Shown in pieces: positions 2,059-59,196 of a stretch of 61,959 bases of DNA; position 1 is the first letter of the stretch, and the number at the start of each line of letters is the position of its first letter. The notes beneath the pieces are model-generated. The model saw nothing but the letters and a program-made list of their open reading frames with translations, did not search any database and was not told the origin of the DNA. The stretch comes from a virus (Duplodnaviria > Caudoviricetes). Location of the stretch: IMG/VR virus record IMGVR_UViG_3300017716_002569, positions 1 through 61,959 of that record. One strand, given 5' to 3'. The position numbers and the translations under genes were made by a program.

Positions 2059-3162
2059 ATGATAGACAGACGAATAATATTACAAGCAGGTATCAGGGAA
2101 ATTGATATTCCAAAGAAAACAAGGGAGTGGTTAGAATTTAGAAGGAACGGGATAGGGGCTTCTGAAATGGCAACCATCCTTGGGCTATCTCCTTATGCGC
2201 CAACTGTCACAGAACTGTGGCGTTACAAAGTTGGAATAGGCCAAGCAGTTGACATTAGAAACCAGCATGTATTATTTGGTGGGGAGCTGGAACCATTGAT
2301 AGTAAAAATGGCTAAGTATTGGGATGGTTCAGAAAATGGATATATTGATAACTACTACGACAATAGGCTTATCAGGGATATTCAGGCCGTGGATTCATAC
2401 ATTATTAATGACCAGTTTCCTCACATATTCGTTTCGCTAGATGCTTTCATCCCACAGGGCTGTGTTAGGCTTGACATAGATGGTGGTGACTTCACCGGAG
2501 AAGAATTGTGGATTGATCATCCGTTGGAATGTAAGAACATATCCGGTTATAATTCGCGCAAGTGGGTTTCTGGAATACCGATTATGTATTATGTTCAGCT
2601 GCAAACCCAAATGATAGCCCTTGGTGTTGATTATGGGGAACTAGCGGTGTTGGTTGATAACTCACAGTTTAGCGTTTATCCATTTCAGGTGAATGAAGTT
2701 TGGAGGCAGCGCATACTTGAAAAGTCAGAAGAGTTTTGGGATTCTGTTTTGCTGGGGCGAAAAGCCCTTGCTGCAGGTGATGAAGATATGTTGGCCTATT
2801 TGGAGCCACAGCCAAATGAAAGTGAAGCATACACAGAGTTCTATTCAGAAGAGTTCAAACGCAAGGATGCAATTGAAAAGGCCCTTGGAGGGGATGATGA
2901 AAAGGAGCTGTGCAATAAGGTCAAATTGTTGATGGAGTTTGAAGATGTGCTAGACGAAACCAAACAGCTATACAAAAACCGACTTACCAAGAGCATTGTT
3001 GATATTGGCTGTGAAAAACTAACATTCCCTAACAATGGATATATTAGATATGCTAAGAGGTCCAACTCTAAAAACTATAGCATTGATTTTAGGGGTTTCA
3101 AGCCTGATTATCCAGAAGAACTTGTTGAAATCTTCACAAAATCTGTTAGGAAATTAGTGTAA
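2059..3162 (+). CDS. YqaJ-like viral recombinase / lambda-type exonuclease
   Basis: 'EWLEFRRNGIGASEMATILGLSPY', 'SLDAF', 'LECK' and 'YYVQLQTQM' motifs; RecT lies downstream. Confidence 0.9.
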   Translation: MIDRRIILQAGIREIDIPKKTREWLEFRRNGIGASEMATILGLSPYAPTVTELWRYKVGIGQAVDIRNQHVLFGGELEPLIVKMAKYWDGSENGYIDNYYDNRLIRDIQAVDSYIINDQFPHIFVSLDAFIPQGCVRLDIDGGDFTGEELWIDHPLECKNISGYNSRKWVSGIPIMYYVQLQTQMIALGVDYGELAVLVDNSQFSVYPFQVNEVWRQRILEKSEEFWDSVLLGRKALAAGDEDMLAYLEPQPNESEAYTEFYSEEFKRKDAIEKALGGDDEKELCNKVKLLMEFEDVLDETKQLYKNRLTKSIVDIGCEKLTFPNNGYIRYAKRSNSKNYSIDFRGFKPDYPEELVEIFTKSVRKLV

Positions 3163-3205
3163 TTTATGTTTCCTTTGTTTACATATTATTAACGATTAGC
3201 GCAAA

Positions 3206-3469
3206 ATGATTATACAGCATCAAATAAAACCCTTACTACACGCAAGATGTGCGAAAATTGGGGTTAATAGCAATATTGCACAGGAGAAAAAGAAACTAGC
3301 AAAGGCCATGGGGCTTTCAGATGCATGGTTTCGTAGGCTGTGGAGTGATCCATATATGCCTATCAGCAAAGAGTACGAATTAAAGGCAATTGAGTATTTA
3401 GGAATTAAAGCAGAAGAATTATATGTTATCCTCAGAGAAAAAACCAAAAAGACCAAGACCTTGGCTTAG
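3206..3469 (+). CDS. small HTH (XRE/Cro-like) DNA-binding protein
   Basis: 'KKKLAKAMGLSDAWFRRL ... IEYLGIKAEELY' pattern. Confidence 0.55.
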   Translation: MIIQHQIKPLLHARCAKIGVNSNIAQEKKKLAKAMGLSDAWFRRLWSDPYMPISKEYELKAIEYLGIKAEELYVILREKTKKTKTLA

Positions 3470-6738: not shown

Positions 6739-6767
6739 AAAAAAGGCCACTTAATTGTGGCCTTTTT
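6739..6767. terminator. bidirectional intrinsic terminator
   Basis: AAAAAAGGCCAC-TTAATT-GTGGCCTTTTT between convergent operons. Confidence 0.85.
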
Positions 6768-9126: not shown

Positions 9127-9174
9127 TTCTGATATGGGAATCGAACCCACGCCACAGAGGCATCCAATACAGAA
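9127..9174 (-). ncRNA. minimal tRNA-like element (T-arm, short hairpin, closing stem)
   Basis: Minus strand TTCTGTATTGGAT-GCCTCTGTGGC-GTGGG TTCGATT CCCAT-ATCAGAA; canonical T-loop. Confidence 0.45.
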
Positions 9175-9225
9175 AAAGCGGGGGAATTAGGAAACACGAC
9201 TAACCTAACTCCCTTTATCCGCTTT
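9173..9225 (-). terminator. intrinsic terminator hairpin whose loop is antisense to the leader motif
   Basis: AAAGCGG..GGGAGTTAGG-TTAGTCGTGTTT-CCTAATTCCC-CCGCTTTTT; the G.U pair forms only on the minus strand. Confidence 0.7.
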
Positions 9226-9227
9226 CA

Positions 9228-9509
9228 TTATTTTAAGTACACGGTATAGACAAGTCTAAAACCTTGTGCATGTACGGGCTCAATTCGCACATAGCTATTG
9301 AACACGCTTAATTTTTTCATCCTGAATGTTCCAATTATTTTGATGTCATTTTGTACCAACCAAGAATTAAAGTCAATGTAATATCGGTCTGCTTGTATGT
9401 CGCACCAATCTTTATAAATCCTTTTAATCTGTGGCCTTAGTTCTCTTGAAATAGTGGCTTGTATTTCTAGTGGTAATTGGTTAAATTCAATAGTCTGTCC
9501 TGATTCCAT
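9228..9509 (-). CDS. hypothetical protein
   Basis: 93-aa ORF, last gene before the terminator hairpin. Confidence 0.6.
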   Translation of the reverse strand: MESGQTIEFNQLPLEIQATISRELRPQIKRIYKDWCDIQADRYYIDFNSWLVQNDIKIIGTFRMKKLSVFNSYVRIEPVHAQGFRLVYTVYLK

Positions 9510-9511
9510 TT

Positions 9512-9823
9512 TTATAGGTTAATTAAAGTTAGTGCAACAAAGTTCAAATCGTTTAGGCAGTTGTCAACCCTTTCAGATATGTAGAGGTTGTATTTAGAGC
9601 ATCCTAGCTTCTTTCTAGTGGCTAAATAGCACTCTTCAGCATCTTTTATCAATACCCATTTACGAAGTGAATTAGACCACTTGTAAAGGTTATTTTCCAG
9701 AGTTAGCATAAACCTCTCCCCGTGTTCATTCTTGACGTAGAACTTCACCATTTTGTCCTTTAGTTCTTCGGCCAAAATAGTCACGGGTACTCCGTTTGGT
9801 AATATATATCCTTTTCCTTTCAT
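9512..9823 (-). CDS. hypothetical protein
   Basis: 103-aa ORF starting 18 nt after the predicted twister cleavage site. Confidence 0.6.
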   Translation of the reverse strand: MKGKGYILPNGVPVTILAEELKDKMVKFYVKNEHGERFMLTLENNLYKWSNSLRKWVLIKDAEECYLATRKKLGCSKYNLYISERVDNCLNDLNFVALTLINL

Positions 9824-9827
9824 GCTT

Positions 9828-9892
9828 TTAGCAGTTAGTTTACAGCCCGTGGGCTGTCCTCACTATTTATCCTGACTTGGAACAGGTGCTAA
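9828..9892 (-). ncRNA. twister ribozyme, type P3 (A)
   Basis: TTAGCA|CCTG TTCC AAGT CAGG|ATAAA|TAGT|GAGGA|CAGCC CACG GGCTG|T^AA|ACTA|AC|TGCTAA. P1-P4 all pair; pseudoknots TCC:GGA and AC:GT; predicted cut 9842/9841. Confidence 0.9.
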
Positions 9893-10291
9893 TATGTGCT
9901 CATTAATAAATTGAACTATTAAATCACAAGTCATTTCTGTTTTTTTAGATAAATCGCCACAGACCAATGATATTATTGGTTTATCCTCTTCCAATACCCT
10001 ATAAATTTGGTAGCTTATGCCTTTTATTGCTACCACATACCCCTGCTCTTCAATTCTCCTAATAACTGGTATCAAATAGTTAAAATCGGTATCAAATGGG
10101 TACTTCACAGCGTTTGTAAATCTACCCGTAAATGTAAGGGCTAATCCATTCCAAAGGTGAGCTAGTTCTCCTATTGTTTTGGCGTATTTATTGCCATTGT
10201 AAATAGGGTTAAAAACATCGTGTTGGTAGTCTATAACTTCATAACCCATAAACTTTGCAATGGTCTGTGTAATTAACAAATCTTTTTCCAT
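9863..10291 (-). CDS. hypothetical phage protein
   Basis: ATG at 10291; 'IAKFMGY...FDTDFNYLIPVIRRIE' pattern; 3' end overlaps twister A. Confidence 0.6.
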   Translation of the reverse strand: MEKDLLITQTIAKFMGYEVIDYQHDVFNPIYNGNKYAKTIGELAHLWNGLALTFTGRFTNAVKYPFDTDFNYLIPVIRRIEEQGYVVAIKGISYQIYRVLEEDKPIISLVCGDLSKKTEMTCDLIVQFINEHILAPVPSQDK

Positions 10292-10295
10292 GATA

Positions 10296-11066
10296 TTATA
10301 TATTATTGGTTTGACAAAATGTATCAAAATAAGCCTCTTCTTGTGCTTCTATCATGCCAAGGGCTGCATCAGGTTCTTGCGTAAATTTACAGGTGGTTTC
10401 TGAGGTCATGGAATAGCATTTTTTAAGGTCATAGTTGTAAAGCATTTCTTCTTCTTTCATTATCCTAACTCCCGTTTCTGCGCATTTGCTGTTAAAAATT
10501 GCCTTAATGACTTTCTGTTTATGGTCAGCGGTGGGAATTTGGCTTCCTGGTGCTGGGGTAAAACTGCTCTTTGCAGGCACATCAAACTCAATTTTGTAAA
10601 AGTCCTCTATTAATCCACAGCTCACATTAGGATTGTCAACGATTCTAAAATTATGTGCACCTTTTGGGAATGATTGATTAACTAGGATTCTGTAAAGCAC
10701 TTCGCTTTTTTCGTGGTGTCTGTTCCATTTTTCAGGCTCTTGATAGCTCCAATTAGTAAGCATTTGCTGCCTTGCTTCCTCGTCAATCAATCTGTGGCAA
10801 AACAAATGTTTAGTTTGTGGCAACCCTTCAATTCTGTTGGTTAGCTCGTACATATCAATCATGCCATTGAAAGAGCCGTATTGATACTTATTTGTAATCG
10901 CTGCCACTTCTTTGGTGGTTGCCCCTAGTGTCCATTCAACATCCACAGAATCACCTCCTGAATAGTTTTTAGAGGTTATTCTAAATGTAATGTCGGGGAA
11001 CTTTGTTTTTAGCTCAACCCTAATTGCTTGTGCGCATTGCGCAACTCTCGAAAGTTGTTTTTTCAT
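10296..11066 (-). CDS. LPD29 (large polyvalent protein-associated domain 29) protein
   Basis: 'AQAIRVELKTKFP...YSGGDSVDVEW...KYQYGSFNGMIDMY'; ATG at 11066 preceded by ACACGAC. Confidence 0.75.
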   Translation of the reverse strand: MKKQLSRVAQCAQAIRVELKTKFPDITFRITSKNYSGGDSVDVEWTLGATTKEVAAITNKYQYGSFNGMIDMYELTNRIEGLPQTKHLFCHRLIDEEARQQMLTNWSYQEPEKWNRHHEKSEVLYRILVNQSFPKGAHNFRIVDNPNVSCGLIEDFYKIEFDVPAKSSFTPAPGSQIPTADHKQKVIKAIFNSKCAETGVRIMKEEEMLYNYDLKKCYSMTSETTCKFTQEPDAALGMIEAQEEAYFDTFCQTNNI

Positions 11067-11073
11067 TGTCGTG

Positions 11074-11307
11074 TTACTTGGTTTTATAGTTTGTGATAGC
11101 TTGATTGAATAATTCCTTTGCATCTGTACCTTCTGAATGGCGTAACCTGATTTCATACTTGTACTTTGTGTCGGGATGCCATACTAAGGTTTCATCCTTT
11201 GCCATGTTTAGATTAACGAAGTATTTTACGCTAAAATCTTCGTGTGAGGCATCAAATAATGATTCCATTATTTCACCTTCTACTACTTTTTTAAATGTTG
11301 TTTCCAT
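11074..11307 (-). CDS. hypothetical protein
   Basis: 77-aa ORF starting 16 nt after the predicted hammerhead cleavage site. Confidence 0.6.
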   Translation of the reverse strand: METTFKKVVEGEIMESLFDASHEDFSVKYFVNLNMAKDETLVWHPDTKYKYEIRLRHSEGTDAKELFNQAITNYKTK

Positions 11308-11317
11308 GTCGTATTTT

Positions 11318-11371
11318 GATTAAGACCACCCTTGCGGATGGTTTCGGCTATTTAAGCCTCGTCAGTTAATC
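11318..11371 (-). ncRNA. hammerhead ribozyme, type I (HH1)
   Basis: GATTAA|CTGACGA|GGCT TAAAT AGCC|GAAA|CCATCC GCAA GGGTGG|TC^|TTAATC. Complete catalytic core, GUC site; predicted cut 11324/11323. Confidence 0.95.
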
Positions 11372-12073
11372 TTCTATTTCAATCAGGATTCCACCATTTA
11401 CTACAAATTCATAGTCTAAATCTGCCCATTCAGTATAATAGCTATTGCACCCCTCGTCACCTCCTTCTTTTTCGTACAAGTCATTGAAATCTTTATATCC
11501 TAGTGTCCGTGCGTGTTGGTCGGCTAACTCTTGGGTGCTTGCGTATGTTCCATCACTATCAAAATACCATCCTTCATCCATGCCGTTATCAGTAAATGAA
11601 CATTTACGCATGAACTTTTCACCTTCTTTGCCTTTTACAAATCTGTGGGCTGTGTAAAACTCTTCCAATGTATCAAACCAATCCGCAGTTTCTCCCCAAA
11701 TTTCATCCTCATATTTTGCAGTGAATTTAGTTGTAAGGTCATAGGCAAGCTCCCACGCTCCACCCATGCCCATTTGTTGATGTCTTAGGTGCGCTATTGA
11801 TTCCTCATTTTCCCTATCAATATCATCCTGAACGAATGATATAATTTCGTGGTGAGTTTCTGCCCATTCACGTTCCACGGGAACACGGCCAACTTCAATT
11901 CCAAACTCTGCGCCATCCTCTTGGGCGGCTGTGAGGTCTTCATATTCCTCAATCAATGATTCTGAACCATCAGGATGTAGGCGGTAAACCTCAAAGCATC
12001 CAGATACGAATACTTCCTTTGCTTTCTCGGTAACAATTAACCAAGTAAAGCCTTTTGTTGTTTTTGTGTTCAT
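11366..12073 (-). CDS. hypothetical acidic protein
   Basis: 235-aa, very D/E-rich; its stop codon lies in stem I of HH1. Confidence 0.65.
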   Translation of the reverse strand: MNTKTTKGFTWLIVTEKAKEVFVSGCFEVYRLHPDGSESLIEEYEDLTAAQEDGAEFGIEVGRVPVEREWAETHHEIISFVQDDIDRENEESIAHLRHQQMGMGGAWELAYDLTTKFTAKYEDEIWGETADWFDTLEEFYTAHRFVKGKEGEKFMRKCSFTDNGMDEGWYFDSDGTYASTQELADQHARTLGYKDFNDLYEKEGGDEGCNSYYTEWADLDYEFVVNGGILIEIED

Positions 12074-12489
12074 TATTCTGCAATTAGTTGTTTAAGTAAA
12101 TTAAGGTCAATTTCAGCCCAAAACTCGTCATTGGTGTGCTCGCCATAGCATTGGATGGTTACACCTTCATGTGAGAAGAATTTAGTGGTATAAGAGCGTA
12201 ATTTGTTTTCGGGCATGTTATCAAGTTCACTATCTTCTAAATCTACCAAATGAGCCCCATTAGTATTAAATTCGTTTTCATCTTCCATTCTGTCAGTGTT
12301 TATGAATGTTGGCGATGAATCTAATGTTTGGATGCAAAACAAAGAATGTTCTGCAATAATTGGGGCAAACTTAGCTTGCTCTTCAACTATCCTTTTACAT
12401 TTTTCAATTGGAATGAATAGCGCATCTACGCTATCAAAATCGCTGTTTGTTCTTGCAGGGAATAATATTCCCTTGTTTGTTGTACTCAT
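12073..12489 (-). CDS. hypothetical acidic protein
   Basis: 138-aa ORF with ACACGAC leader, downstream of twister B. Confidence 0.65.
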   Translation of the reverse strand: MSTTNKGILFPARTNSDFDSVDALFIPIEKCKRIVEEQAKFAPIIAEHSLFCIQTLDSSPTFINTDRMEDENEFNTNGAHLVDLEDSELDNMPENKLRSYTTKFFSHEGVTIQCYGEHTNDEFWAEIDLNLLKQLIAE

Positions 12490-12508
12490 TTTGTCGTGTA
12501 TTATTTAT

Positions 12509-12576
12509 TTAGTGTGTTTGTTTACGGGCATTTCTGCCCGTGCTCACAATTTAGGGGACTTGCAACCCTACACTAA
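12509..12576 (-). ncRNA. twister ribozyme, type P3 (B)
   Basis: TTAGTGT|AGGG TTGC AAGT C CCCT|AAA|TTGT|GAGCA|CGGGCA GAAA TGCCCG|T^AA|ACAA|AC|ACACTAA. Pseudoknots TGC:GCA and AC:GT; predicted cut 12524/12523. Confidence 0.9.
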
Positions 12577-13311
12577 TTGTTTGAGTACCATTATTTGTTT
12601 GATTACATTAAAAAATTGAGGGCTATTAAAAAACTCATTTATATCAGTAAATTGATTAGGTTTAAGTGTTTTTATATTGTGGGTTTTGTTGGTATAAACA
12701 GATACCTCTTCAAGCAATTCGTAATAGCCTTCTTTAAAGTAAAACATTACTATATCATCTAGTTGAATATTCCATGATGTATCTGTATTAAATTTCGGAT
12801 TTATTGTTACACGGAACATTGGCAAATCCTTTTTTAACAAGTCCAAATCAGCATACAATTTTGCTTTAAGATTGGCAGCATGTTGTTGTCTTTTTTGTTC
12901 TGCTGTGGCATCCCTTTCTACTTCAATTTTGATTTTATCCAATAGACTGGGTTTTTTCGGCTCTAATAGGTCTATCCTATGAATAACATATTGCACGGCC
13001 TCAGATGGCACGGAATTAAGCATATACTCCGTAGCTTCTTCATCCGATTCCATTTCATCAAAGAAAGATGCAAATAATAGGTTTGTGAGTGTTGGTGTTT
13101 CTTCAACGCTTCTAGCAAGTAAATCCAATACTTCCATAAATGCCTCTCTGTGGGCTGATGCAAGTATTACCCAATCATTGTTTTGTCTTCTTATCCTCCC
13201 ATTTGGATAGTAAATAGGGCCTGAACCCGTTTGTTCCCAATAGTAATTTTGTGGGTTGTCAATGCCTGATGCATCAAAAGGCAAATGTTTGATTTCTTCA
13301 AATTTTTTCAT
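12568..13311 (-). CDS. hypothetical protein
   Basis: 247-aa ORF flanked by twisters C and B; ACACGAC leader. Confidence 0.65.
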   Translation of the reverse strand: MKKFEEIKHLPFDASGIDNPQNYYWEQTGSGPIYYPNGRIRRQNNDWVILASAHREAFMEVLDLLARSVEETPTLTNLLFASFFDEMESDEEATEYMLNSVPSEAVQYVIHRIDLLEPKKPSLLDKIKIEVERDATAEQKRQQHAANLKAKLYADLDLLKKDLPMFRVTINPKFNTDTSWNIQLDDIVMFYFKEGYYELLEEVSVYTNKTHNIKTLKPNQFTDINEFFNSPQFFNVIKQIMVLKQLV

Positions 13312-13319
13312 GTTGTCGT

Positions 13320-13390
13320 GTTGTTAGTTAGTTTATAGGGCATTGCTGCCCTATCATCACTATTTGTGCGGACTTTGAACCGCTAACCAC
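13320..13390 (-). ncRNA. twister ribozyme, type P3 (C)
   Basis: GTGGTTA|GCGG TTCA AAGT CCGC|ACAAA|TAGT|GATGA|TAGGGCA GCAA TGCCCTA|T^AA|ACTA|AC|TAACAAC. Pseudoknots TCA:TGA and AC:GT; predicted cut 13335/13334. Confidence 0.88.
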
Positions 13391-14120: not shown

Positions 14121-14593
14121 TATACTAAACCCTCCTTCCTTAGTGCTTCCATTTCTTCTGCGGATAAAATAACCCAATTAGTATAATCTGTGGCCTTGTA
14201 TAGTAATTCATGTGATTTATCGTATTCATTGTGCTCGTATATCTCATATATACAGCAGCTATCTTCATCCATTGCATTAATACAATCAGCTAAACTAAAA
14301 TACTCTTGATCATCTGTAAATGACTTATAAATTTGATATGCGTCATCATGCATAAATAAATAACATGTCACAGAATCAACGGGCTTTTCCATTGCTGCAA
14401 TCTCTGCAACCTTATCAGCCCATTGTATATAGCTGTTAGCAGAAATAAGGGGGTTAGACCATTCCTTTGGATTTTCGGTTGCTCCTTCTTTGGTCATGGC
14501 TGCAATAGCTTGGATGCGTTCCCATAGGATAGCATTAGACACGGGGTTTGTAAATGCCCGTAATAGTTCAATTACTCGATTTTCGTTTGTCAT
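14120..14593 (-). CDS. hypothetical protein
   Basis: 157-aa ORF with ACACGAC leader, downstream of HH2. Confidence 0.65.
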   Translation of the reverse strand: MTNENRVIELLRAFTNPVSNAILWERIQAIAAMTKEGATENPKEWSNPLISANSYIQWADKVAEIAAMEKPVDSVTCYLFMHDDAYQIYKSFTDDQEYFSLADCINAMDEDSCCIYEIYEHNEYDKSHELLYKATDYTNWVILSAEEMEALRKEGLV

Positions 14594-14609
14594 TGTCGTG
14601 TTTTTAATT

Positions 14610-14665
14610 GGTTAATACAGCCATGTTTCAGGCTGTTTCAAGCATTTAGCTATCGTCAGTTAACC
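14610..14665 (-). ncRNA. hammerhead ribozyme, type I (HH2)
   Basis: GGTTAA|CTGACGA|TAGC TAAAT GCTT|GAAA|CAGCC TGAAACAT GGCTG|TA^|TTAACC. Full core, GUA site; U.U at the base of stem II; predicted cut 14616/14615. Confidence 0.85.
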
Positions 14666-15274: not shown

Positions 15275-15553
15275 TTATGCTAAATCGGCCCTCCTAACCT
15301 CATTAAAAAACAATTGTTGCTGTCTAGAAGCCCTATATTTGGCTTCTTGTAGGTCTTTTGCTGCTTTCATTTCTTGAATAGCCACATTAAGTTTTTTCTT
15401 CCTATTTTCCTCAGAAAATTTAACAATTACAGCAATTTGCTCATCTGTAGCAATATTATTGCCTTTTTTTTCAGATTTCAATGTACCTAAAACTACCCTA
15501 TTACCTAGGGGTTTGAAGGGCTTTACCCTTGTTTTTTTGCTTGATTTTGCCAT
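15275..15553 (-). CDS. hypothetical basic protein, first gene of the ribozyme operon
   Basis: 92-aa K/R-rich ORF with ACACGAC leader and an upstream promoter. Confidence 0.6.
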   Translation of the reverse strand: MAKSSKKTRVKPFKPLGNRVVLGTLKSEKKGNNIATDEQIAVIVKFSEENRKKKLNVAIQEMKAAKDLQEAKYRASRQQQLFFNEVRRADLA

Positions 15554-15577
15554 TTTTTTGTCGTGTTAAAAGACAAA

Positions 15578-15610
15578 CAAAGCTATATATTAAAAACATA
15601 ATATCAACAA
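15578..15610 (-). promoter_or_regulatory. Bacteroidota sigma-A-type promoter for the leftward operon
   Basis: -7 box TAGCTTTG (15585-15578) matches TAnnTTTG; TTG-rich -33 region upstream. Confidence 0.65.
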
Positions 15611-22594: not shown

Positions 22595-22912
22595 ATGAAA
22601 AAACCATATAAACAACCAGCAAAAAAGCTCACCAAGCAAGAGTGGGCCAAGATTGACGAAGAGTATTCAGAGGATATGAATATTCAAATTGCAGCAAATA
22701 AAAAGGACCCAGACAATTGGGTGAATGTCACCTGCAAGGGTGTTGTTATTCCACTGACCAAGGAAGAAGAGGTTGCCTGGAATAAGTTGTCAAGGACCGA
22801 CAAACGATCCATGGCTGACAGCATAAAGAAAAAAATTGATTCTGGGGCATTTGAATACATACAGTACGAAACAATAAAATTAATACGACCAACGCATGAA
22901 AGAGAAGATTAA
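22595..22912 (+). CDS. hypothetical protein
   Basis: 105-aa ORF in operon. Confidence 0.6.
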   Translation: MKKPYKQPAKKLTKQEWAKIDEEYSEDMNIQIAANKKDPDNWVNVTCKGVVIPLTKEEEVAWNKLSRTDKRSMADSIKKKIDSGAFEYIQYETIKLIRPTHERED

Positions 22913-23213
22913 CACACTATCAAACCGAGTTTTGATAAAACCCGATTTGGTATCAGAGGTTCAGAATGGGATAATTTCTGGATTTGAGACAAATGATGAA
23001 GGGCAAATAGTTAGGAAGCCAAGGAAGCCGCATACAGGTGTTGTTCTTTCTGTGGGGCGTTTCGTGCCACAGATTAAGGAGGGCATGAAGTTAATATTCC
23101 CAACCGGAGGTGCAACTGTTTTGCAGGAGAACGGGGAAGAGGTATTGATGTATAGGGCTTGTGACATTTTTGCAATTTTGGATGGAAAAAATATAATACC
23201 ATTAGCGTTATGA
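22896..23213 (+). CDS. GroES-like co-chaperonin
   Basis: 'LSNRVLIKP...GII...TGVVLSVG...IKEG..LIF...GEEVLMYRACDIFAIL' Cpn10 pattern. Confidence 0.75.
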   Translation: MKEKINTLSNRVLIKPDLVSEVQNGIISGFETNDEGQIVRKPRKPHTGVVLSVGRFVPQIKEGMKLIFPTGGATVLQENGEEVLMYRACDIFAILDGKNIIPLAL

Positions 23214-30812: not shown

Positions 30813-32192
30813 ATGTCTAATGCAACCACACCAGTTACCTCCATTTACTATAATGACATAGTATCTGGATTTGATCTCCATAAACCGGAGTTCCTAAGTT
30901 CACTTTATCGTCGTTATGGCGACCAAGGAGTGAACATGTTACAAACATTAAGAGCCATGGGCTTCGAAATGAATGTATCTCAACAAGATTATTCACATTT
31001 TGAAGAGAATTGGATTACCGATTCCTTCGTAAACAAAACAGCGTTTTCAGCTGGTGCCGCAGGTGCCGATGTAAACATGACCTTAGATGCTAGTTCACTT
31101 GATGCTAGTAACCGCTTTTATGTTCGTAAGTTCGATATTATCTTGTTCCCGAATGAGGTAACAGCTTACGTTGCAGCTATTGACGTATCAACTCCTTCTG
31201 CTCCTGTGCTTACATTACGACCACAAGATGTATTAGATGCAATCCCTGCTACCTCCGCTGGTGCAACATTAATTATCACTGGTAATATGTTCTCGGAAGG
31301 TTCTGGACAACCTAATGGCCGTTTTTCAGGTGCCTACAAATACACAAACAACACTCACATTGTTAAGGAAACTATCGGTGCAACTGGTACTGAATTAACA
31401 AATGAGAGCTGGGTAAAAGTTGTGGATGGTAAAGGTATTGAGGGTTGGTTTAACAAGGCTTACCAGATTGACTTGGATTACAGAATGTCAAAAAACATGT
31501 CTGGTGTATTTATGTTCTCAAAGAAAACTACTAATACAGCTGCAGTTGACCCTGCTACTGGTTACGCTATCAGAACCACAGAAGGTTTCTTCCCTTACTT
31601 AAGACGTTTGGGTAATGTTTATCCTTACACTCCTGGTTCTTTCTCAGTTAGTGATTTTGATGAATTTGACCGTATTTTAGCTGCTAACTATGCAGGTAAC
31701 TATGTAATGGCTTACTTAGCTCAAAACCTACATATAGAGGTTGAAAATAAGTTAGTTGATTTCAACAAGTTTACTGGCATTGATTACACCCGTAAGGTTG
31801 TAAACGCAGATTTATTCGGTAACGATGAATCATTAGCAGTTTCAGTTAACTTCTCATTATTTACTAAAGCAACCCGTACTTATTTGTTCAAGCGTTTCAG
31901 CGAATTGAATGATCCTAAGTCTTATGGTGCCACAGGTTATCCAATGAAAAACTTTGGTATCTTGTTCCCATTAGATAAAAATAGAAAAGATAAAGCCGGT
32001 AACAAAGTAGGTAATATCGGTATTCGCTTTAAAGCAATGGGTTCTTACAGCCGTAAGATGGAAACATTCGAATTAGGTTCAGCAAACGTGGCTATCAAAA
32101 CCACAGACGTTGATACCAAGAATGTGTATCAACGTACAGACATGGGAGCACATTTTATGGGTGGAAACCAAATGATATTGATTACGCCATAG
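30813..32192 (+). CDS. major capsid protein
   Basis: 459 aa, strongly biased codon usage, followed by a strong terminator; 'YTNNTHIVKET' and 'TTEGFFPYL' fit an HK97-fold crAss-like MCP. Confidence 0.85.
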   Translation: MSNATTPVTSIYYNDIVSGFDLHKPEFLSSLYRRYGDQGVNMLQTLRAMGFEMNVSQQDYSHFEENWITDSFVNKTAFSAGAAGADVNMTLDASSLDASNRFYVRKFDIILFPNEVTAYVAAIDVSTPSAPVLTLRPQDVLDAIPATSAGATLIITGNMFSEGSGQPNGRFSGAYKYTNNTHIVKETIGATGTELTNESWVKVVDGKGIEGWFNKAYQIDLDYRMSKNMSGVFMFSKKTTNTAAVDPATGYAIRTTEGFFPYLRRLGNVYPYTPGSFSVSDFDEFDRILAANYAGNYVMAYLAQNLHIEVENKLVDFNKFTGIDYTRKVVNADLFGNDESLAVSVNFSLFTKATRTYLFKRFSELNDPKSYGATGYPMKNFGILFPLDKNRKDKAGNKVGNIGIRFKAMGSYSRKMETFELGSANVAIKTTDVDTKNVYQRTDMGAHFMGGNQMILITP

Positions 32193-32196
32193 TCAA

Positions 32197-32234
32197 AAGG
32201 AGGGACTGCTTAGGTGGTCCCTCCTTAATTTTTT
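32197..32234 (+). terminator. intrinsic terminator after MCP
   Basis: AAGGAGGGACTGC-TTAG-GTGGTCCCTCCTT-AATTTTTT. Confidence 0.85.
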
Positions 32235-32263
32235 AGAGTAACACAGATTAAAAAAAAGAGTAT

Positions 32264-59136: not shown

Positions 59137-59140
59137 TTTT

Positions 59141-59176
59141 TAGGAGCCCATAGTAAACTGTGGGCTCCTATTTTTT
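59141..59176 (+). terminator. intrinsic terminator
   Basis: TAGGAGCCCATAG-TAAA-CTGTGGGCTCCTA-TTTTTT. Confidence 0.9.
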
Positions 59177-59196
59177 CATTATTAAAACTAAGTGTT

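Follow-up and report, generated by a model that had tools for sequence, protein, structure and literature searches.

The terminator loops of most small RNAs (sRNAs) are 4-7 nucleotides (nt) long; the longer ones of ManS (12 nt) and RepG (17 nt) are used as seeds, according to excerpts of PMC11745405. A hairpin that may work in a comparable way is present on the minus strand, at positions 9173..9225, of the IMG/VR phage record IMGVR_UViG_3300017716_002569 (61,959 bp, linear class, estimated completeness 85%), the whole of which is referred to here as the window. The hairpin is of the intrinsic-terminator type, and its 12-nt loop is complementary to a short word, A(C/U)ACGAC, found 0-6 nt before six start codons of the operon in which it lies. 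As with ManS of Salmonella and RepG of Helicobacter pylori, a long Rho-independent terminator loop would pair with mRNA leaders or initiation regions, and ManS is cut from a longer transcript, as is proposed for the phage hairpin. However, ManS and RepG are tested chromosomal sRNAs whose targets are encoded elsewhere (PMC11745405, excerpts), whereas the pairing described here is predicted and involves six leaders of the same phage operon; in addition, the phage loop is G/U-rich, and its release would be by a ribozyme and not by RNase III. In the OxyS-fhlA kissing complex, exposed bases of a terminator loop likewise pair with the target in the region where its translation is initiated, although OxyS is a stand-alone sRNA that uses two loops against a single target (PMC11979758, excerpts). 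A loop effect need not imply direct pairing, since SdsR, RseX and ArrS have terminator loops that exert an effect, probably one that involves no pairing with the target (PMC11979758, excerpts).

Other described systems resemble the locus in its arrangement. In GlnZ-type sRNAs, which derive from 3' untranslated regions (3'UTRs), the regulatory RNA consists of an mRNA's 3' end together with the terminator. The seeds of 3'UTR-derived sRNAs are usually single-stranded and lie upstream of the terminator, and it is RNase E, not a ribozyme, that releases these RNAs. The c4 RNA is a processed, stand-alone structured RNA, and the CI RNA of phage P4 is a kindred case. C4, an antisense RNA of phages P1 and P7, shares an operon, c4-icd-ant, with the genes that it represses (PMC8198154, excerpts, citing Citron and Schuster 1990). 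It lies upstream of its targets and serves the immunity of a temperate phage (PMC8198154, excerpts), whereas the element described here is an operon terminator downstream of its putative targets. In ribozyme-punctuated operons, intergenic twister or hammerhead ribozymes have been proposed to split a polycistronic message into parts that differ in stability or translation, and the purpose of such processing in phage operons is described as still open; the excerpts of this source make no mention of a shared leader word or of a complementary terminator loop (PMC6765202). A literature search of limited coverage found no published ribozyme operon with an antisense terminator loop. The first-pass annotation of this DNA, made from the sequence alone, had presented ribozymes, leader motif and terminator loop as an RNA circuit not recognized as described. 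This was too strong, as both terminator-loop seeds (PMC11745405, PMC11979758) and a same-operon antisense RNA, c4 (PMC8198154), are in print, at least as far as excerpts of these sources go. The new part, if true, would be the combination: release by ribozyme, an operator word in six leaders, and a terminator loop complementary to that word.

The hairpin reads, in RNA order on the minus strand, GCGG-AUAAA-GGGAGUUAGG-UUAGUCGUGUUU (loop)-CCUAAUUCCC-CCGC-UUUUU. Its lower stem of 4 base pairs (bp) joins GCGG (9222-9219) to CCGC (9181-9178), with a 5-nt bulge (AUAAA) above; the upper stem of 10 bp, one of them G.U, joins GGGAGUUAGG (9213-9204) to CCUAAUUCCC (9191-9182) and is closed by the loop UUAGUCGUGUUU (9192..9203), in which GUCGUGU(UU) at 9200-9192 complements the leader word. 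The U5 run (9177-9173) comes directly after the CCGC of the stem. Folding of the minus-strand RNA yields -25.0 kcal/mol (z -4.35), a value equaled by 0 of 200 shuffles, and the plus-strand RNA reaches only -18.3 kcal/mol, 6.7 kcal/mol weaker, because the G.U pair becomes A.C there. Thus, a minus-strand hairpin with a U run is present as the first-pass annotation had proposed, and the G.U pair points, as it had argued, to the mRNA strand as the one that folds. The hairpin shares with intrinsic terminators a stable, G+C-containing stem-loop on the transcribed strand and a U run directly after the stem; it departs from them in its loop, which at 12 nt exceeds the typical 3-8 nt, and it was missing from the output of a consensus terminator scan, which accepts loops of 3-8 nt. 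Two other strong terminators of the phage, on the plus strand at about 32190-32235 and about 59140-59177, are of the textbook form, each with a 13-bp stem, a 4-nt loop and a T6 run, and stand after the capsid-region and late genes (~32.2 kb and ~59.2 kb). The loop at 9192..9203 is three times longer than theirs.

In our reading, the hairpin serves as an intrinsic terminator and protects the 3' end, functions assigned to the observed structure from established knowledge of such hairpins. The gene that ends just before it, with its TAA stop codon at 9230-9228, had been called the last gene of the operon. It is the last of the ribozyme cluster but not of the gene row on that strand, given that a C5 DNA methylase gene (9123->7774), starting 50 nt past the hairpin, and three small open reading frames (ORFs) lie downstream on the same strand. 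With genes continuing on this strand beyond it, the hairpin is probably an internal terminator and not the place where a transcription unit ends. Membership in a catalogued RNA family, RAGATH included, was rejected, as the best Rfam match was no better than E 2. Also rejected was a sigma-70-like promoter just upstream of the hairpin (9/12 matches), since such matches number 43 in the sequence versus 38 in shuffles. The UUAG at the 5' end of the loop fits the YUNR pattern, a match made by eye and weak as evidence; YUNR is said to present the following bases for fast pairing in antisense loops (PMC6562991, excerpts).

The leader word is real. ACACGAC is present in 5 copies on the minus strand, compared to 0.64 expected under a first-order model, and A[CT]ACGAC followed by ATG within 0-6 nt has 7 occurrences across the window, of which 6 belong to the operon, whereas 200 Markov simulations gave a mean of 0.52 and a maximum of 3. 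All six copies of ACACGAC/GTCGTGT in the 62-kb window, both strands included, fall within the operon. Five of these belong to leaders, and the sixth is the inverted copy in the loop. On the minus strand the word precedes AUG 15553 by 6 nt (UAACACGAC, 15560..15568), AUG 14593 by 1 nt (AAACACGAC, 14595..14603), AUG 13311 by 3 nt (CAACACGAC, 13315..13323), AUG 12489 by 3 nt (AUACACGAC, 12493..12501) and AUG 11066 by 1 nt (again UAACACGAC, 11068..11076), while a variant, AAAUACGAC (11308..11316), abuts AUG 11307. Four of these sites are associated with the ribozymes described below. The words at 14593 and 11307 come after the hammerhead candidates HH2 and HH1, respectively, and that at 12489 comes after twister B; the first 4 nt of the word at 13315..13323 also form the 3' end of twister C. 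There is no ribozyme at 11068..11076, where the word overlaps the stop codon of the preceding gene. In terms of genes, the word stands before the one at 15553, before the one at 11066, and before each gene that comes first behind twister C, twister B or one of the two hammerhead candidates. All of these require translation to start anew; most genes without the word either overlap the preceding stop codon or adjoin it directly.

A seventh word-like site, AUACGAC-N6-AUG, is located on the plus strand at window positions 22883-22898, before a 105-amino acid (aa) ORF (22896-23213) of the other gene row. Its predicted hybrid with the loop has -9.4 kcal/mol and ranks 9th among the 72 phage start regions. 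Since 0.52 such sites are expected per genome, this one could be chance.

The complementarity between loop and leaders was compared using the 31-nt start regions of the 15 cluster genes. GUCGUGUUU (9200-9192) is the exact complement of AAACACGAC at 14603-14595, and the longest run of Watson-Crick pairs is accordingly 9 at 14593; it is 8 at 15553, 13311 and 11066, 7 at 12489, and 5 at 11307, where a run of 9 is reached when one G.U is allowed. The other nine cluster starts give runs of only 3-5. The sole core change among the six words, the C to U at 11307, still pairs as G.U. The first-pass annotation had named four of these leaders, with coordinates and pair counts that were right; those at 12489 and 11307 are added here. 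Predicted hybrids range from -10.6 to -12.5 kcal/mol: -12.5 at 14593, -11.9 at 13311, -11.8 at both 15553 and 11066, -10.9 at 12489, and -10.6 at 11307. Opening is predicted to cost 0.1-1.6 kcal/mol for the targets and 0.8 kcal/mol for the loop, and the six leaders with the word are the top six predicted targets among the 72 phage start regions. Two features of a terminator-loop seed, a long exposed loop and complementarity to target leaders, are found here.

The operon is punctuated by ribozymes. Three twister-P3 ribozymes on the minus strand score well above the gathering score of Rfam RF03154 (39.9) and cover model positions 1-73 of 73: twister C at 13320..13390 (62.2 bits), twister B at 12509..12576 (58.5 bits), and twister A at 9827..9893 (58.7 bits). 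Two more minus-strand sites fold into a three-way junction that includes CUGACGA and GAAAC, and both remain candidates for type I hammerheads. HH1 (11318..11371; z -3.04) matches RF00163 with 21.4 bits (E 0.0026), below the gathering score of 34; HH2 (14610..14665; z -3.54) has CUGACGA, GAAAC and GUA recognized by eye and gave no Rfam hammerhead match at E up to 10. Stem II of HH2 is weak, having only 3 bp with a U-U mismatch beside them, and HH2 may be a weakened or slow ribozyme. If the ribozymes cut in vivo, the resulting pieces are predicted to have leaders of 16-34 nt, as judged from the twister alignment and from what we take to be the cleavage site. Twister A would release the last piece, which contains two genes, of 103 aa and 93 aa (9228..9823, minus strand; neither matches a known family), together with the hairpin. 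The leader that follows twister A, 18 nt long (AAACUAACUGCUAAAAGC-AUG, start 9823), has no word, and the hairpin-bearing piece is the only ribozyme-released piece of which this is true, as the first-pass annotation had observed; two of the five ribozymes behind this statement are candidates.

Further upstream, TAGCUUUG (15578-15585, minus strand), ~25 nt before AUG 15553, fits TAnnTTTG, which we take to be the -7 promoter box of Bacteroidota. As an operon promoter this box was rejected and is a lead only, because TAnnTTTG is not enriched (98 versus 89.5 expected). A promoter at this position would yield a short leader, like those left by the ribozymes.

We lean, tentatively, toward the reading that the loop is a working antisense seed directed against the leader word, most likely repressing translation. 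The first-pass interpretation of the hairpin as a loop sRNA is partly supported, in that the complementarity is improbably placed, loop and targets are predicted to be open, and the loop is atypical; one limit is the hairpin's position, which is probably that of an internal terminator. In the mechanism envisaged, the hairpin would close the ribozyme-punctuated early gene cluster, ending transcription at 9173 and protecting the 3' end. The GUCGUGU(UU) of its oversized loop would then pair in the cell with A(C/U)ACGAC upstream of the six start codons, which would be those of the leading cistron in the primary transcript and in each of four ribozyme-released pieces and that of a single internal cistron. 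Such pairing would cover the place where the 30S subunit binds, and translation would be repressed. The hairpin, being transcribed last and presumably outliving the message, would build up, giving a delayed shut-off of the early genes, and the piece that bears it, lacking the target word, would escape repression. A larger proposition is that the phage has a self-contained RNA circuit, in which the ribozymes cut, the word is the operator, and the terminator loop is a repressor that times shut-off without a protein regulator; this we consider possible but doubtful.

Real pairing might instead take place within one molecule, an unprocessed or read-through transcript, where it would affect folding, cleavage, stability or read-through into the methylase gene and would not produce a diffusible repressor. 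Loop and targets do lie on one transcript, the word overlaps twister C and lies 9-25 nt past HH1, HH2 and twister B, and the short distance at which same-strand genes resume past the hairpin would suit such a role. However, fast cleavage by the twisters, as is general for these ribozymes, would part the loop from its targets, and a single loop is unable to fill six sites. Moreover, pairing of the loop does not compete with the terminator stem, leaving no obvious way to control read-through. Pairing confined to one molecule is unlikely.

An antisense seed must also be weighed against coincidence. GTCGTGT is present once on the minus strand, where 0.94 copies are expected; therefore, the whole case rests on the place of this copy. 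It falls in the operon's single 12-nt terminator loop, for which the expected number of chance copies is 0.00009. The expectation is 0.0009 across all 17 intergenic hairpin loops of at least 7 nt, and it rises to 0.069 if any position in intergenic sense RNA counts, all three values being based on a rough gene call (61 genes, 3,446 nt intergenic). Among random 12-mers of the composition of the operon, 22 of 40,000 reach at least 7 Watson-Crick pairs with at least 5 leaders. Allowing for what a reader would flag, the chance probability is roughly 0.001-0.02. An inverted duplication of a leader is an unlikely source of the copy, as the complementarity, inspected by eye, stops at 9 nt.

If the match is nevertheless due to chance, the hairpin would be a plain terminator or 3' stabilizer, and the word would be read by a phage or host RNA-binding protein, for which it is a translational operator, or by a ribosome that initiates without Shine-Dalgarno pairing. 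We regard this as a substantial possibility, though a somewhat doubtful one: the position of the copy in this loop, the tripled length of the loop, and the finding that the hairpin-bearing piece is the one without the word are not what coincidence would be expected to give. Unusual initiation signals are plausible in this phage, since a Shine-Dalgarno-like leader is found in only 3 of 22 plus-strand genes. A number of other observations also count against an antisense seed, some of them in favor of a chance match. Beyond the single copy that chance predicts, the pairing is short, 7-9 bp, with A-U pairs at its ends, and a 12-nt loop cannot form all 9 pairs unstrained. In 6/6 leaders an A follows GAC and faces loop base A3, with which it cannot pair, and pairing with the loop does not explain the tight spacing of 0-6 nt between word and AUG. 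Because neither the invariant A nor the near-fixed spacing is accounted for by pairing, they suggest that the word has its own reader, a protein, or its own function in initiation. There is one loop for six targets per transcript; therefore, repression would require the 3' piece to accumulate. The hairpin is not at the end of the gene row, as described above. Searches of GenBank phages and contig collections yielded no relative for a comparison of loop and leaders, and a twister of this form followed by ACACGAC was found in no other IMG/VR contig and in no species genome. Finally, the one real relative keeps the hairpin block even though 9873-13371 and four of the six leaders are missing from it, a finding that is compatible with an antisense seed but does not support it.

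This relative is a 9,631-nt contig from X4, a freshwater run. It was found when contigs from four public DNA runs were compared; those of X3 and X5 do not cover the hairpin, and there is no RNA run among the public sequencing runs that carry this DNA. Across the hairpin block, window positions 9136-9873, the X4 contig has 9 differences in 738 nt, compared to 35 in 788 nt, 20 in 324 nt and 11 in 421 nt for the further blocks. Thus, the hairpin travels with the last two genes as the best-kept block, which is compatible with either a seed or a chance match. The contig joins position 9873 to 13371. The junction, where 5 letters are shared, falls within twisters A and C, and six genes, twister B and HH1 are thereby missing. 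It seems that gene cassettes recombine with the ribozymes as joints.

This exchange of cassettes would fit yet another explanation, that the 9-bp word acts at the level of double-stranded DNA, perhaps as a site for a recombination function or for the winged-helix protein whose gene is the first of the region (16177-15659, minus strand; weak PadR-like match, E 0.00017, below threshold). The copy in the loop would then simply be a seventh site, inverted. However, a DNA site provides no reason for a spacing of 0-6 nt to AUG six times over or for an exact placement within an RNA hairpin loop, and the joint in X4 lies inside the twisters, not at the word. We consider this explanation very unlikely.

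Related loci were otherwise scarce. Among GenBank phages there was no match to the operon or to twister A by blastn, or to the 93-aa, 157-aa and 247-aa proteins by tblastn, and a search of IMG/VR found no related loci for the 93-aa, 103-aa and large terminase (TerL) proteins. The 93-aa protein has seven relatives, P0002-P0008, of 62-65% identity on contigs of up to 11.5 kb; an alignment of this cluster found nothing among metagenome, viral and genome contigs. For the LPD29-domain protein of the operon row, 50 distant IMG/VR loci were obtained, the best with 49% identity over 92 residues. The leader word was repeated before start codons in 0/50 of these loci, and Rfam found no twister in the 10 of the 50 that were scanned. 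One of them, the viral contig L004, contains at 3108-3459 a full transfer-messenger RNA (tmRNA) gene (79.1 bits). A search with the stems of the hairpin and a free loop gave 0 matches in IMG/VR and, among metagenome contigs, one unrelated GC-rich contig, L172. A loose pattern of twister tail plus word occurred in at least 120 stretches, and none of the 120 listed matched the twister expression; 16 of the listed 120 had the word (C/U) before ATG at least 2 times, and the 9 of these that were read all looked chance-like.

By TerL, the nearest GenBank phage is MW202828.1 (L173/L174), with 30% identity and a similar structural module but no ribozyme. MW202828.1 has a genome of equal size, a giant structural-module protein, and two tRNA matches at 523-697. 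More broadly, identities of 26-31% link the large terminase to its counterparts in phages of Flavobacterium, Cellulophaga and Maribacter and in one freshwater podovirus. Because of this kinship and the few Shine-Dalgarno-like leaders, the host of the phage is likely to belong to Bacteroidota.

The hairpin lies within a minus-strand row of small early-type genes that extends from ~16.3 kb down to 6.77 kb. Besides the genes already mentioned, this row encodes a RadC-like JAB protein, and it is closed by a bidirectional terminator hairpin, GGCCAC-N6-GUGGCC (6744-6763), located between the convergent gene rows. Between the terminator hairpin and the methylase start, minus-strand positions 9134-9151 contain a stretch, GGGUUCGAUUCCC, that resembles a tRNA/tmRNA T-arm and weakly matches the 3' end of tmRNA (E 0.051). 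ARAGORN found no tRNA genes in the window. The similarity to the X4 relative ends at 9136, within this stretch, which may be an attachment-site remnant or a module boundary.

The system would be a small one, consisting of a 53-nt hairpin and 9-nt targets. It is present in a phage whose likely host group is largely without Shine-Dalgarno initiation and in which RNA regulators are, to our knowledge, little explored. If the match of the loop is chance, the leader word still wants a reader, and the word is the more solid finding. If the antisense seed is true, the locus would unite three things that have been described apart from one another: the processing of phage operons by ribozymes, terminator-loop seeds, which are rare, and phage antisense RNAs that are encoded within the operons they target. 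In that case the ribozymes would gain a concrete role, which would be to free a regulatory 3' piece and to make short, uniform leaders that are within its reach.

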